From IMG/VR virus record IMGVR_UViG_2693429676_000008: a stretch of DNA of 5,357 bases. One strand, 5' to 3'. A model generated the notes under the pieces. That model was not told the DNA's origin. It saw only the letters and a list, made by a program, of their open reading frames with translations, and searched no databases. Shown piece after piece: positions 489-5,319 of this stretch; within the stretch, counting starts at the first letter, position 1; each line of letters opens with the position of its first letter. The position numbers and the translations under genes were made by a program. Source of the DNA: a virus. Taxonomy: Duplodnaviria; Heunggongvirae; Uroviricota; Caudoviricetes.

Positions 489-1175
489 ATGACCCCAATA
501 AACATATTTATGACAGTTGCTGATTTCAAACGGCCCAAATTGGAGCTCCCAAACGGGGCAAACAAACTACTACTGCACTCTTGCTGTGCTCCATGTTCCG
601 GTGAGGTGATGGAGGCGCTTCAGGCCTCGGGAATCGACTACACCATCTTTTTCTACAACCCGAACATTCATCCTCAGAAAGAGTATTTAATTCGTAAGGA
701 TGAGAATATTCGCTTTGCTGAACAACACGGCGTGCCGTTTATTGATGCTGATTACGACACAGACAACTGGTTTGAACGAGCCAAAGGAATGGAATGGGAG
801 CCCGAACGAGGGATCCGTTGCACCATGTGTTTTGACATGCGTTTTGAGCGGACAGCGCTGTACGCCGCTGAAAATGGTTTCAGTGTGATCAGCAGTTCAC
901 TGGGCATTTCACGCTGGAAAAATATGCAGCAGGTTAACGACTGTGGGCGGCGAGCCGTCGCGCATTATCCGGGCATGGTGTACTGGGATTATAACTGGCG
1001 CAAGCAGGGCGGCTCGTCCCGTATGATTGAAATCAGCAAGCGCGAAAAATTCTATCAGCAGGAATATTGTGGCTGTGTGTATTCTCTGCGCGATACCAAT
1101 CTACACCGCAAATCTCAGGGACGCCCTCTTATCAAAATTGGTCAACTCCACTACGGTAAAGAAGAGAAGGAGTGA
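489..1175 (+). CDS. queH: QueH-like (DUF208 family) putative cobalamin-independent epoxyqueuosine reductase homologue
   Basis: 228-codon ORF with the N-terminal HSCCAPCS motif, a central RCTMC motif and a C-terminal YCGCVYS motif, the cysteine pattern I associate with the QueH/DUF208 Fe-S family. Start is uncertain (ATG 489 or in-frame ATG 510; neither has a strong Shine-Dalgarno). Assignment is from motif memory, not a search. Confidence 0.75.
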
Positions 1176-1196: not shown

Positions 1197-1226
1197 TTGA
1201 TTTCATATTGGCGAGGTAAGTAGAAT
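1197..1226 (+). promoter_or_regulatory. Candidate sigma70 promoter for the hok mRNA (-35 TTGATT 1197-1202, 18-nt spacer, -10 TAGAAT 1221-1226)
   Basis: Good hexamers with acceptable spacing, placing the transcript start near 1233, exactly where the hok-mRNA-like 5' sequence GGGUGCUUGAGGCU begins. Confidence 0.4.
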
Positions 1227-1289
1227 GACTGCGGGTGCTTGAGGCTATCTGCTTCAGGCATGAACACCAAAAGGCAGATAGAGAAAAGC

Positions 1290-1354
1290 CCCAGTTAACA
1301 TTACGCGTCCGGCAAGACGCTTAACATTAATCTGAGGCCAATTTCATGCTTTGC
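1290..1354 (-). ncRNA. sok: Putative Sok-like antisense RNA (approximate boundaries) complementary to the hok mRNA leader and mok translation-initiation region
   Basis: Expected by analogy with hok/sok loci. Candidate minus-strand promoter: -35 TTGCCT (1389-1384), 17-nt spacer, weak -10 TAACCT (1366-1361), start near 1354. The 3' end is not defined by a clear terminator, so coordinates are approximate. Confidence 0.3.
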
Positions 1355-1558
1355 ACATGTAGGTTAGCCTCTTACATGCCGAAAGGCAAGGAGAAGCAGG
1401 CTATGAAGCAGCAAAAGGCGATGTTAATCGCCCTGATCGTCATCTGTTTAACCGTCATTGTGACGGCACTGGTAACGAGGAAAGACCTCTGTGAGGTACG
1501 AATCCGAACCGGCCAGACGGAGGTCGCTGTCTTCGTAGACTACGAATCCAGGAAGTAA
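1346..1558 (+). CDS. mok: mok-like reading frame (in-frame N-terminal extension of hok; modulator of killing)
   Basis: ATG 1346 preceded by GAGG (1334-1337). The N-terminal extension MLCTCRLASYMPKGKEKQAM has the same pattern as chromosomal MokC as I remember it (ML.TCR....K.KEK.AM), then continues in frame into hok. Confidence 0.5.
   Translation: MLCTCRLASYMPKGKEKQAMKQQKAMLIALIVICLTVIVTALVTRKDLCEVRIRTGQTEVAVFVDYESRK
1403..1558 (+). CDS. hok: Hok/Gef family type I toxin (51 aa, single transmembrane helix), closest to the HokC/HokD subfamily
   Basis: Translation MKQQKAMLIALIVICLTVIVTALVTRKDLCEVRIRTGQTEVAVFVDYESRK matches the Hok/Gef family almost residue for residue against remembered HokD/HokC. 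Preceded by the RBS AAGGAGAAG. The surrounding mRNA has the conserved hok leader (GCUUGAGGCU..UAGCCUCUUAC..GCAAGGAGAAG) and 3' elements. Confidence 0.85.
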   Translation: MKQQKAMLIALIVICLTVIVTALVTRKDLCEVRIRTGQTEVAVFVDYESRK

Positions 1559-1610
1559 GAGTGACCGGGCGGGGAGCTGATCCCATCCCCGCCCACCTCT
1601 GATGTGTCAG

Positions 1611-1627
1611 GCATCCTCAACGCACCC
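1611..1627 (+). other. fbi-like (fold-back inhibition) element in the hok mRNA 3' region, complementary to the mRNA 5' end
   Basis: CCUCAA-C-GCACCC (1615-1627) is the reverse complement, with a 1-nt bulge, of the predicted 5' end GGGUGC UUGAGG (1233-1244). A 9-bp GC-rich hairpin (1567-1575 with 1586-1594) lies between the hok stop and this element. Confidence 0.4.
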
Positions 1628-1633
1628 GCACTT

Positions 1634-1678
1634 AACCCGCCCATCGCTGTGATCTCTCAGCGTTTCGGCGGGTTTTTT
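1634..1678 (+). terminator. Rho-independent terminator of the hok transcript
   Basis: Stem CCCGCC (1636-1641) pairs with GGCGGG (1667-1672), with an inner CGCUG/CAGCG helix, followed by T6 (1673-1678). Confidence 0.6.
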
Positions 1679-1698
1679 GTTGTTTATTTCCGGTGAAT

Positions 1699-2309: not shown

Positions 2310-2332
2310 GGTAATGACTCCAACTTATTGAT
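2310..2332. repeat. IS1 terminal inverted repeat (insB-proximal end)
   Basis: GGTAATGACTCCAACTTATTGAT read directly on the + strand. Confidence 0.9.
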
Positions 2333-2828
2333 AGTGTTTTATGTTCAGATAATGCCCGATGACTTTGTCATGCAGCTCCACCGATTTTGAGAACGACAGC
2401 GACTTCCGTCCCAGCCGTGCCAGGTGCTGCCTCAGATTCAGGTTATGCCGCTCAATTCGCTGCGTATATCGCTTGCTGATTACGTGCAGCTTTCCCTTCA
2501 GGCGGGATTCATACAGCGGCCAGCCATCCGTCATCCATATCACCACGTCAAAGGGTGACAGCAGGCTCATAAGACGCCCCAGCGTCGCCATAGTGCGTTC
2601 ACCGAATACGTGCGCAACAACCGTCTTCCGGAGACTGTCATACGCGTAAAACAGCCAGCGCTGGCGCGATTTAGCCCCGACATAGCCCCACTGTTCGTCC
2701 ATTTCCGCGCAGACGATGACGTCACTGCCCGGCTGTATGCGCGAGGTTACCGACTGCGGCCTGAGTTTTTTAAGTGACGTAAAATCGTGTTGAGGCCAAC
2801 GCCCATAATGCGTGCAGTTGCCCGGCAT
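2325..2828 (-). CDS. insB: IS1 InsB (C-terminal catalytic part of the InsAB' transposase, expressed by -1 frameshift)
   Basis: 167-aa translation [56 protein letters not shown]... matches IS1 InsB and overlaps insA at the frameshift window. Confidence 0.9.
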
Positions 2829-3022
2829 CCAACGCCATTCATGGCCATATCAATGATTTTCTGGTGCGTACCGGGTTGAGAAGCGGTGTAAGTGAACTGC
2901 AGTTGCCATGTTTTACGGCAGTGAGAGCAGAGATAGCGCTGATGTCCGGCAGTGCTTTTGCCGTTACGCACCACCCCGTCAGTAGCTGAACAGGAGGGAC
3001 AGCTGATAGAAACAGAAGCCAC
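2747..3022 (-). CDS. insA: IS1 InsA (transposition inhibitor and N-terminal part of the InsAB' transposase)
   Basis: 91-aa translation [91 protein letters not shown] matches IS1 InsA. Confidence 0.9.
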
Positions 3023-3054
3023 TGGAGCACCTCAAAAACACCATCATACACTAA

Positions 3055-3077
3055 ATCAGTAAGTTGGCAGCATCACC
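3055..3077. repeat. IS1 terminal inverted repeat (insA-proximal end)
   Basis: ATCAGTAAGTTGGCAGCATCACC on the + strand, the reverse complement of GGTGATGCTGCCAACTTACTGAT. Confidence 0.9.
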
Positions 3078-3128
3078 TTTTGTCTCTATGTTGATATAAC
3101 CGTTTGTACTTATAAACCTGGAGGCATC

Positions 3129-3341
3129 GTGGAAAAAATAAAGAAACTATTTAGTAGTAAATACGCAGTCATACGTCGTGATGACCTGTCAGTTATAGTC
3201 GAAATGGATTACTTCCCTGAAACCAAAAAATCAATGATGTATCGTAATGGTCGAAAGGCAATTTTTTTACCGATGAGGGTAAGTGACATTATGGGAAATG
3301 ATAAACTGCTGGATGAATTGCGAGTCAGAGCATCCTGTTAG
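3129..3341 (+). CDS. Hypothetical small protein (70 aa), AT-rich moron-like ORF with GTG start
   Basis: GTG 3129 preceded by GGAGG (3120-3124). AT-rich coding sequence immediately after the IS1 end. No family recognised. Confidence 0.4.
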   Translation: MEKIKKLFSSKYAVIRRDDLSVIVEMDYFPETKKSMMYRNGRKAIFLPMRVSDIMGNDKLLDELRVRASC

Positions 3342-3356
3342 TATTGGCATTAATTC

Positions 3357-3365: not shown

Positions 3366-3412
3366 ACATAACGGGCTGAACACCCATTCTACTGCGCCAG
3401 CGGAGAACTACG

Positions 3413-3916
3413 ATGGCGCATATACAACTGATCAAACAAACCTCTTCCGGATTACTTCTCCCGGCGACGCCGGAGAGTTGCGATTTTCTGCATCAAATCA
3501 AAATAGGTGAGTGGATACACGCAGACTTTAAGCGTGTGTGTAACTACGCATTCCACAAGCGTTTTTTCAAACTCCTGCAACTGGGATTCGATTACTGGAC
3601 TCCGGTCGGTGGGGCGATCACGCCTCGCGAACGAGAACTGCTGTCTGGTTTCGTTGATTACCTGTGCGAATCAGTAGGTCGGGAACATACGCCAGCTCTG
3701 AGCGAAGCCGCAGAGCAATATCTGAATACAGTTGCGACACGCAGAACCAGTGATACGGCATTGCTAAAGTCGTTTGAGGCTTTCCGCGAGTGGGTAGCCA
3801 TTCAGGCCGGATTTTACACCGAGCATTTTTATCCGGACGGTAGCCGTGGGTGTCGGGCGAAATCTATCGCGTTTGCGAATATGGACGAAACCGAGTTTCA
3901 GCAGGTTTATAAATAG
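3413..3916 (+). CDS. ybcN: ybcN-like (DUF1367-type) nin-region protein, C-terminally truncated by an internal tandem duplication that creates a TAG stop at the duplication junction
   Basis: ATG 3413 preceded by GGAGAA. The 167-aa product ends ...FANMDETEFQQVYK*. The same peptide recurs in the downstream duplicate and continues SVLNVLWNWILFRKFSSPEQVENVAAQLLEFA*, so the ancestral gene was about 199 codons. Family and name are from memory and from position immediately upstream of ybcO. Confidence 0.65.
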   Translation: MAHIQLIKQTSSGLLLPATPESCDFLHQIKIGEWIHADFKRVCNYAFHKRFFKLLQLGFDYWTPVGGAITPRERELLSGFVDYLCESVGREHTPALSEAAEQYLNTVATRRTSDTALLKSFEAFREWVAIQAGFYTEHFYPDGSRGCRAKSIAFANMDETEFQQVYK

Positions 3917-4117
3917 AGCAATATCTGAATACAGTTGCGACACGCAGAACCCGGGATACGGCATTGCTAAAGTCGTTTGAGGCTTTTCGCGAGTGGGTAA
4001 CCATTCAGGCTGGATTTTACACCGAACATTTTTATCCGGACGGTAGCCGCGGGCGTCGGGCAAAATCCATCGCTTTTGCGAATATGGACGAAACCGAGTT
4101 TCAGCAGGTTTATAAAT
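3712..4117. repeat. Tandem direct duplication, 2 x 203 bp (3712-3914 and 3915-4117), about 95% identical (11 mismatches counted by eye)
   Basis: Direct alignment of the two copies in the sequence. The unit is not a multiple of 3 and the junction reads AAA|TAG. Confidence 0.85.
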
Positions 4118-5056: not shown

Positions 5057-5100
5057 CGTAAAAACTGCTTCAATTCTTGTACGCTTCGCAAAGCTGTACC
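5053..5100 (+). promoter_or_regulatory. Candidate late promoter (pR'-like) and Q-utilisation region
   Basis: TTGACG (5053-5058) overlaps the Q stop codon and a terminator lies about 75 bp downstream, the geometry of a short 6S-like transcript. No convincing -10 hexamer could be pinned down. Confidence 0.25.
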
Positions 5101-5133
5101 GCGAGGCGAATAGCAGACATGGACATTTGAAAG

Positions 5134-5157
5134 AGCCCGCTTTATGCGGGTTTTTTT
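5134..5157 (+). terminator. Rho-independent terminator (tR'-like) downstream of Q
   Basis: Stem GCCCGC (5135-5140) pairs with GCGGG (5146-5150) around loop TTTAT, followed by T7 (5151-5157). Confidence 0.65.
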
Positions 5158-5207
5158 ATACCTGAAAAACGGCACAGGACGTTAAACGTGCTGGTGGTCA
5201 GATGAGT

Positions 5208-5245: not shown

Positions 5246-5319
5246 GGCCCTTTAGCTCAGTTGGTCAGAGCGAGCGACTCATAATCGCCAGGTCGCTGGT
5301 TCAAGTCCAGCAAGGGTGA
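5246..5319 (+). tRNA. tRNA with anticodon CAT, ileX/ileZ-like (probably tRNA-Ile2 read as AUA after lysidine modification; elongator tRNA-Met not excluded)
   Basis: Cloverleaf assembled by hand: acceptor GGCCCTT / AAGGGTG, D-arm GCTC-AGTTGGTCA-GAGC, anticodon arm AGCGA-CTCATAA-TCGCC, T-arm GCTGG-TTCAAGT-CCAGC, discriminator A, no encoded CCA. The D, anticodon and T arms are nearly identical to remembered E. coli ileX. Mismatches at acceptor pair 1-72 (G-G) and anticodon-stem pair 27-43 (A-C). Confidence 0.75.

Follow-up and report, generated by a model that had tools for sequence, protein, structure and literature searches.

Does the interval 1197-1680 (plus strand) of the window, by which we mean the whole stretch of 5,357 nucleotides analysed here, hold a complete hok/mok/sok locus, and what could such a locus do for the element that carries it? 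Among type I toxin-antitoxin systems, hok/sok is the textbook case, and a preliminary description made from the sequence had proposed a complete locus of this kind, with complementary mRNA ends. With high confidence, we identify the interval as a complete and intact type I toxin-antitoxin module belonging to the hokW-sokW group, situated in the early-right (nin) region of a Shigella/E. coli lambdoid prophage. The full locus and its tac/fbi end pairing are borne out by the Rfam family RF01794, the Pfam family HOK_GEF, the fold of the whole transcript and a set of 30 relatives, and every element named in the preliminary description proved to be present, exactly where it had been placed or a few bases away. 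The locus is real but ordinary: it is a near-copy of the published and widespread hokW-sokW locus of Shiga-toxin phages, and is in this sense already known.

The toxin gene, hok (1403-1558, plus strand), encodes 51 amino acids and is preceded by a GGAG Shine-Dalgarno (SD) sequence at 1390-1393. As had been described, it is nested in an in-frame, mok-like reading frame of 70 codons (1346-1558, plus strand), which ends at the same stop codon. The mok ATG at 1346 stands 57 nucleotides upstream of hok, a spacing shared with phage 933W and with the R1-type plasmid locus, and has its own SD sequence, GAGG (1334-1337, plus strand), 8 nucleotides before it. The toxin matches the Pfam family HOK_GEF (PF01848) over the entire profile (positions 1-42 of 42) with 81.1 bits for a cut-off of 22; its NCBIfam Hok matches are all sub-threshold, the Hok subfamily model NF007279 scoring 55 bits, below its cut-off of 73.

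Is this toxin a new variant? It had been assigned to the HokC/HokD subfamily with a divergent C-terminus, VFVDYESRK. The subfamily assignment stands, but the C-terminus is that of HokW (VFVDYESEK) with E50R, and this is the sole change between the two proteins, which are identical at 50 of 51 residues. The ending is not a new divergence, because HokW differs from it by E50R only and the exact protein is already in RefSeq (WP_014532198.1, named HokD); it is also found in Shigella flexneri.

Upstream of the reading frames, a sigma-70-like promoter with a -35 TTGATT (1197-1202), an 18-nucleotide spacer and a -10 TAGAAT (1221-1226, plus strand) scores 9 of 12 in a consensus scan, and its -10 hexamer is conserved in 933W. 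Transcription is predicted to start at about 1233, where the RF01794 model also begins, and the predicted full-length hok mRNA, which we folded, spans 1233-1680 (plus strand), or about 448 nucleotides. A covariance-model search, one of the checks proposed for this locus, returned a full-length match to RF01794 at 1233-1408 on the plus strand (model positions 1-157 of 157), with 117 bits for a gathering score of 59 and an E-value of 4.6e-27. The family is 'sok' by name; what its model recognises here is taken to be the hok leader, because the match is to the hok-sense strand, with the 3' end of the model falling on the hok AUG. We therefore infer the Sok gene itself from an antisense promoter and terminator.

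Inside the RF01794 match lie the three conserved leader blocks that had been pointed out earlier, GCUUGAGGCU (1237-1246), UAGCCUCUUAC (1365-1375) and GCAAGGAGAAG (1386-1396), all on the plus strand. The regulatory elements of a hok mRNA can be placed on the same strand. The translational activator element, tac (GGGUGCUUGAGG, 1233-1244), forms the 5' end; it is followed by ucb, the anti-SD box (AAGCCCCAG, 1286-1294), whose core AAGCCCC is invariant among 30 loci, and by the dcb box (AGCCUCUUAC, 1366-1375, with AGCCUC at 1366-1371). Past the stop codon come a GC-rich hairpin of 9 base pairs (1567-1594; 1567-1575 with 1586-1594), whose pairs are kept in 30 loci, a 3' UTR segment (1602-1614) whose partner in the full-length fold is the region of the mok start (1346-1358), and the fold-back inhibitory element, fbi (CCUCAACGCACCC, 1615-1627). 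An intrinsic terminator (1634-1680) closes the transcript, with a compound hairpin at 1634-1674 and U6 at 1675-1680; it folds directly with -24.2 kcal/mol (z = -6.0). The GC-rich hairpin and the terminator of the preliminary description were thus both recovered by folding. No terminator was listed at the locus by the consensus terminator scan, because the loop limit of that scan is 8 nucleotides. The terminator-side 3' end is lineage-specific, since most relatives stop aligning at about 1640.

Do the two ends of this mRNA pair with each other? The whole transcript (1233-1680) has a minimum free energy (MFE) of -191.2 kcal/mol, compared with -139.6 +/- 6.1 for shuffled sequences (z = -8.4), none of the 100 shuffles being as good. 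In this fold, tac and fbi form a duplex of 12 base pairs with a bulged G1621, in which 1233-1238 pair with 1622-1627 and 1239-1244 with 1615-1620, with pair probabilities of 0.97-1.0. The complementarity of 1615-1627 to 1233-1244, noticed beforehand together with a suggestion that it be checked by folding, thus corresponds to a stable predicted pairing with a probability of about 1.0. Taken alone, the duplex is only modestly unusual: when the 3' region, rich in G+C, was dinucleotide-shuffled, 37 of 2000 shuffles gave an equal or better duplex (1.9%, or about 0.02).

The main support for the predicted tac/fbi pairing is comparative, and much stronger than that given by the duplex alone. A scan of one genome per species identified 47 related loci, in Escherichia, Shigella, Kluyvera, Citrobacter, Pantoea, Photorhabdus and Erwinia, among which we used the 30 non-identical ones with a recognisable 5' end. 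In these relatives, the complement of the 5' 12-mer sits 45-56 nucleotides past the stop codon, and the tac/fbi duplex is kept in 30 of 30, each showing at least 11 of the 12 pairs in its own whole-transcript MFE structure. The duplex also presents compensatory changes across the 30 relatives: position 4 is U-A in 17 and C-G in 11, and position 12 is G-C in 19 and A-U in 11.

In the scheme established for plasmid R1, a tac/fbi stem closes the full-length RNA while ucb sequesters the mok SD; the opened RNA becomes translatable and able to bind Sok, and a metastable 5' structure holds tac while transcription runs (PMC9841398). Is the present transcript able to switch in the same way? In the closed form predicted for the full-length RNA, ucb is paired to the region of the mok SD (1288-1290 with 1336-1338, and 1292-1294 with 1332-1334), and dcb pairs with the stop-codon region (1555-1566). 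In the trimmed RNA, tac positions 1233-1240 would pair with ucb, a tac/ucb stem that is the structure of the RF01794 model. When forced, this open conformer costs +13.2 kcal/mol with fbi and +0.9 to +3.5 kcal/mol without it. For an RNA ending at 1594-1596, the base of the GC-rich hairpin, the cost is +1.6 kcal/mol; by analogy with R1, exonucleolytic trimming from the 3' side probably stops at this hairpin (PMC9841398). In the open conformer, the mok SD pairs with dcb at 1368-1371, as described for R1 (PMC9841398), and the mok AUG is held in a hairpin whose 7-nucleotide loop (1349-1355) faces the 5' end of Sok. The same calculation on the validated 933W locus gives +12.8 kcal/mol falling to 0-2.6. 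We also considered an open stem between GAGGCU in tac and AGCCUC in dcb, with penalties of 5-7 kcal/mol, and rejected it; the published stem is tac/ucb (PMC9841398).

For the trimmed RNAs that we folded, the open conformer was never the MFE structure and the probability of tac/ucb did not exceed 0.08. For the closed-to-open switch, the energies thus indicate plausibility, not proof. What ties up tac in partial transcripts is a local 5' hairpin (1235-1261, plus strand; 1235-1245 with 1251-1261), which is the MFE structure of 1233-1345 and of the trimmed RNAs. By analogy with R1, this hairpin is a candidate for the metastable structure adopted during transcription.

On the opposite strand, a Sok antisense RNA of 71 nucleotides is predicted from 1354 to 1284 (minus strand), its coordinates being transferred from the 933W sokW annotation by alignment. 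It folds into a single-stranded 5' tail of 15 nucleotides, a long hairpin and a 3' UUUU (-28.6 kcal/mol, z = -4.7). Its promoter (1361-1389, minus strand) would comprise a -35 TTGCCT (plus-strand 1384-1389), a 17-nucleotide spacer and a -10 TAACCT (plus-strand 1361-1366); both hexamers are identical to those of 933W, and one spacer base differs. At the sequence level, we thus predict a Sok antisense gene across the mok start, with a promoter and a terminator of its own. By consensus the promoter would be a weak one: with 7 of 12 matches it was not listed by the consensus promoter scan, and we placed it by homology to the SokW -10. Mutation of this SokW -10 element (plus strand AGGTTAG to CCGGCTC; primers YO-421/422) abolished antitoxin activity and unmasked HokW toxicity (PMC8621323). 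The mutated heptamer, AGGTTAG, is found here at 1361-1367.

The target of the Sok 5' tail (1338-1354, plus strand) covers the mok start codon. Across 8 closely related hokD/hokW-type loci, these 17 nucleotides form the most variable segment, with 0.355 differences per column, compared with 0.03 in the Sok hairpin region and 0.066 (about 0.07) in the hok coding sequence. A hypervariable Sok recognition region is the pattern expected if co-resident copies were selected not to cross-react. This concentration of variation in the Sok tail among co-resident prophage copies offers a small testable lead; S. flexneri has three or four hok loci that reside together.

How would the elements act together? 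The present analysis shows the sequence elements, the closed fold with the covariation in it, and the change in energy when fbi is removed; around these observations a mechanism can be proposed. A constitutive promoter would yield a stable hok mRNA of about 448 nucleotides, in which, at full length, the 5' tac would be clamped to fbi near the 3' end. In this closed state, ucb would cover the mok ribosome-binding site, so that neither mok nor the translationally coupled hok would be made and Sok would be unable to bind. Slow 3' trimming to the GC-rich hairpin would remove fbi; tac would then pair with ucb and the mok SD would enter the dcb hairpin, leaving an RNA that is both translatable and a target for Sok. 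The short-lived Sok, 71 nucleotides long and encoded on the opposite strand across the mok start, would pair with the trimmed mRNA, which would be destroyed. Once the supply of Sok ended, through loss of the element or induction of the prophage, Hok would be made, enter the inner membrane and kill or lyse the cell.

The module is flanked on its left by a QueH-family gene (489-1175, plus strand). On its right come, in order, an open reading frame of 95 amino acids with no family match, an IS1 (2310-3077), a DUF1367 gene in pieces, a YbcO-family gene, a DUF1133/Q-like antiterminator gene and a tRNA with anticodon CAT. Such flanks (QueH, DUF1367, YbcO, Q-like antiterminator and tRNA) confirm the prophage setting that had been supposed. 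Over bases 1-2288, the window matches prophage sequences from 'E. coli' FDAARGOS_943 and Shigella flexneri SFBU1023 with 99.5-99.7% identity. Downstream of the hok locus, where the IS1 lies, the DUF1367 gene also presents duplications or joints. On this side the host prophage seems to have suffered damage from IS1 and from rearrangements and may be defective, and selection on the hok module may therefore be relaxed.

Should the locus then be regarded as a remnant, intact in sequence but physiologically silent, with weak transcription at most and a toxin that is never delivered? The IS1 and the DUF1367 duplications or joints around it speak for such a remnant, as does the open conformer, never the predicted MFE structure. 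The locus would then be like the E. coli chromosomal hok loci that failed to mediate killing, as far as those tests are related in the preprint that cites them. We nevertheless hold a silent remnant to be unlikely. All the regulatory elements are intact and the stretch from promoter to terminator is uninterrupted, whereas the K-12 loci were struck by insertion sequences or rearrangements (PMC12214031). Moreover, hokW-sokW, which is nearly identical, works in its native prophage (PMC8621323), and the low hok coding diversity among close relatives (0.066 per column) is consistent with constraint. Retaining the reading of an intact hokW-sokW module, we see in this locus a clean example in which each regulatory element can be mapped at base resolution. 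Such a map helps annotation, because RefSeq marks only the toxin reading frame here.

What would be the function of this module: prophage maintenance, help in lysis or phage exclusion? For mRNA processing, Sok expression, toxicity and biological role alike, we infer its behaviour from the R1 and Sp5 systems. In the Sp5 prophage, the toxicity of HokW, the antitoxin activity of SokW and the dependence on RNase III and Hfq were shown experimentally (PMC8621323). After mitomycin C, SokW vanishes and HokW builds up in the inner membrane, preceding endolysin by about 1 h; deletion of the locus delayed growth arrest and halved phage release and yield (PMC8621323). The role shown for Sp5 hokW-sokW is faster lysis and phage release after induction, not prophage stabilisation or phage exclusion (PMC8621323). 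The prophage-stabilising and exclusion roles proposed at the outset can thus only be suggested for the present locus, because the work on Sp5 showed an effect on lysis instead. Chromosomal hok loci, for their part, gave no post-segregational killing in tests by others, as far as these are cited in bioRxiv 10.1101/2025.08.07.668861.

The same module may therefore serve mainly to hasten host lysis and phage release on induction rather than addiction or exclusion, which we regard as possible, if somewhat doubtful. The Sp5 results on SokW loss, on the early appearance of HokW and on the yield after deletion (PMC8621323) argue for it, and the early-right position of the locus, upstream of the Q antiterminator and the lysis genes, would suit such a role. 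However, the 933W locus sits elsewhere in its phage genome and, if the present prophage is defective, helping phage release would bring no pay-off.

A main role in abortive-infection defence, in which the transcription shut-off imposed by an infecting phage would deplete Sok and free Hok, seems to us improbable, and more so than either of the preceding readings. Its favourable precedent is the hok/sok locus of R1, which was reported to exclude T4. Against it, hok was not enriched close to defence systems in a survey (bioRxiv 10.1101/2025.08.07.668861). Whatever its main role, the locus is best described as an intact hokW-sokW module, to which a further layer of control may be added.

The heptamer CUACGAA around Tyr47 of the toxin (1540-1546, plus strand; codon TAC 1541-1543) has the very sequence of the argQ anticodon loop, argQ being a tRNA-Arg(ACG). 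This tRNA is the natural substrate of TadA. The Tyr47 codon is likely to be a site of A-to-I editing by TadA, at A1542 and changing Y47 to C, because CUACGAA is the exact tRNA-Arg anticodon loop; such editing has been reported for hokC/D/E. A TAC codon followed by G is found at codon 47 here and at the aligned Tyr in 19 of the 19 loci checked, and Cys30 is genome-encoded (TGT 1490-1492). Editing to Cys is reported for the homologous Tyr (Y46) of hokC, hokD and hokE, hokB being edited at Y29, and the disulfide formed by the edited-in Cys is required for HokB toxicity (PMC5630033, PMC12214031).

Following the local protocol of PMC5630033 (+/-25 nucleotides), the heptamer folds into a 7-nucleotide loop with a probability of about 0.8, but the hairpin has a probability of about 0 in whole-transcript folds, where the 3' arm of the hairpin serves instead to mask the hok SD. 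A1542 is unpaired in the whole-transcript folds, and CUACGAA of 933W also occupies a 7-nucleotide loop in the local fold. We tentatively propose, as an idea with nearly as much for it as against it, that hokW-type mRNAs carry a perfect mimic of the tRNA-Arg(ACG) anticodon loop at Tyr47 and undergo efficient TadA editing to Cys47, which would complete a Cys30-Cys47 disulfide for full toxicity. If this is true, killing by a prophage Hok would be gated by RNA editing, a third layer beyond mRNA folding and Sok. The editing hairpin competes with the long-range helix in which the hok SD is hidden, and editing could in this way be linked to the form of the RNA that is open to translation. The probable editing by TadA, at a site that copies the tRNA loop perfectly, is another small testable lead.

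How does the locus compare with known systems? Matching loci are found in 79 phage records, all at 95% identity or less, including 933W, VT2-Sakai/Sp5 and many Stx phages, with annotations that vary between mokW/hokW/sokW, 'host killer protein' and 'RelF'. A related locus is present in 4713 of 5426 complete E. coli genomes, at a median of two places per genome; the exact allele occurs in only two of the 5426. A survey lists 44,248 Hok homologues, enriched in prophages (bioRxiv 10.1101/2025.08.07.668861). As a discovery the locus carries little weight, hokW-sokW being already characterised and related loci being prophage-enriched and present in most E. coli genomes.

Judged by sequence, its nearest studied relative is the hokW-sokW locus of 933W/Sp5, with 92% DNA identity over 1210-1637. 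The tac, ucb, dcb and fbi elements are identical in 933W, as is CUACGAA at Tyr47, and mokW is annotated in frame in the same way as mok here. The differences are about 8 substitutions clustered where the Sok 5' tail and the mok start lie, a hok promoter with another -35 region, insertions of 2 and 5 nucleotides around the GC-rich hairpin, and a different sequence past fbi, terminator included. The position in the phage genome also differs, being the nin region here and near the right end in 933W.

The hok/sok locus of R1 presents its elements in the same order as here (tac, ucb, SDmok, mok, dcb, SDhok, hok, GC-rich hairpin, fbi and terminator), with mok likewise in frame, its ATG 57 nucleotides upstream, and 5'/3' pairing in the MFE structure. 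The Sok promoter occupies the same place, with TTGCGC-17-TATCCT in R1 and TTGCCT-17-TAACCT here. However, the R1 toxin is only about 44% identical (PMC8621323), the R1 mRNA is 398 nucleotides long rather than about 448, and its tac/fbi duplex lacks a bulge such as that of G1621. Unlike the present locus, R1 hok/sok is plasmid-borne and has a demonstrated role in post-segregational killing.

Finally, hokD (relF, Qin prophage) and hokC (gef) of E. coli K-12 encode toxins of the same subfamily, HokD-type proteins being 90% and HokC-type proteins 78-80% identical to the Hok described here. The K-12 copies are reported to be inactivated by rearrangement or insertion sequences (PMC12214031), whereas the present locus is complete. 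The K-12 hokD and hokC genes share TAC followed by G at the C-terminal Tyr. HokD- and HokC-type loci carry UUACGAA in a predicted 9-nucleotide loop, in contrast to CUACGAA in the 7-nucleotide loop of the present locus.

The part of the hok locus that varies most among close relatives, by far, is the stretch targeted by the 5' tail of the predicted antisense RNA Sok (1338-1354), which includes the start of mok. When the locus of the window was compared with the related loci L001, L005, L006, L009 and L012-L014 of our comparative scan, this stretch displayed 0.355 differences per column, versus 0.03-0.07 elsewhere in the locus. Such a concentration of changes in the Sok-tail target suggests selection against cross-reaction among Sok/hok pairs resident in the same cell; at least three hok copies occur in S. 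flexneri SFBU1023 alone.

On alignment evidence, the 3' boundary of the hok module is just past fbi, the 3' element that pairs with the mRNA 5' end, because nearly all other relatives, phages included, cease to align around position 1640; the terminator thus comes from the local context. The sequence following fbi, terminator included (1641-1700), is matched at 99% or more in only two of 5,426 complete E. coli genomes. Directly past the terminator lies a second promoter-like site (1699-1726, TTGATT-16-TAGAAT), both hexamers of which are identical to those of the hok promoter. It stands upstream of a 95-aa ORF (1808-2095) for which we found no match in Pfam or NCBIfam. On its upstream side, the hok locus is adjoined by a gene of the QueH (epoxyqueuosine reductase) family (489-1175, Pfam 220 bits), in the prophage early region.

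Is the Hok message of this locus a substrate for RNA editing? TadA editing was reported in hokC, hokD and hokE at the position equivalent to Tyr47 (PMC5630033). Here, the Tyr47 codon is TAC followed by G, within a CUACGAA heptamer (1540-1546) that is the same as that of the tRNA-Arg(ACG) anticodon loop. In local folds this heptamer is held in a 7-nt loop, both in the window and in hokW of the Stx2 phage 933W, the nearest studied relative; the hairpin is not predicted in folds of the whole transcript. A1542 is a likely site of A-to-I editing by TadA, which would produce Y47C.

Further downstream, a minus-strand IS1 (2310-3077; 768 bp, with 99.7% identity to the IS1 of FDAARGOS_943, a genome annotated as E. 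coli) disrupts a DUF1367 gene in its 5' part. A segment of 21 nucleotides (2289-2309) directly precedes the IS1. The 266 nucleotides that follow it (3078-3343), containing a 70-aa ORF (3129-3341), match a different prophage region of S. flexneri. This arrangement looks like an IS1-mediated joint of two lambdoid prophages. The start of the DUF1367 gene is present in two diverged copies, one to each side of the insert, forming a direct repeat of 184 nucleotides with 94% identity (2112-2295 and 3391-3574). Within the DUF1367 gene, a head-to-tail duplication of 203 nucleotides with 95% identity (3712-3914 and 3915-4117) terminates the first reading frame at 3916, leaving 167 aa versus a profile of about 198 positions. 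Since its copies differ by 5%, it resembles a joint left by unequal recombination of two alleles more than a recent duplication event.

About 70 nucleotides past a Q-like antiterminator gene, we found a strong terminator-like hairpin (5083-5159, GCCCGCUUUAUGCGGGUUUUUUU), with weak, sub-threshold matches to IsrK (19.9 bits) and the Trp leader (23.1 bits). It probably corresponds to a short late-promoter transcript and its terminator, where the Q protein would act. The window also carries a prophage-borne tRNA with a CAT anticodon (5246-5319; Rfam tRNA, 59 bits). ARAGORN assigns it to Met. Its equivalent in FDAARGOS_943 is annotated as tRNA-Ile, the first of a four-tRNA cluster upstream of the lysis genes.
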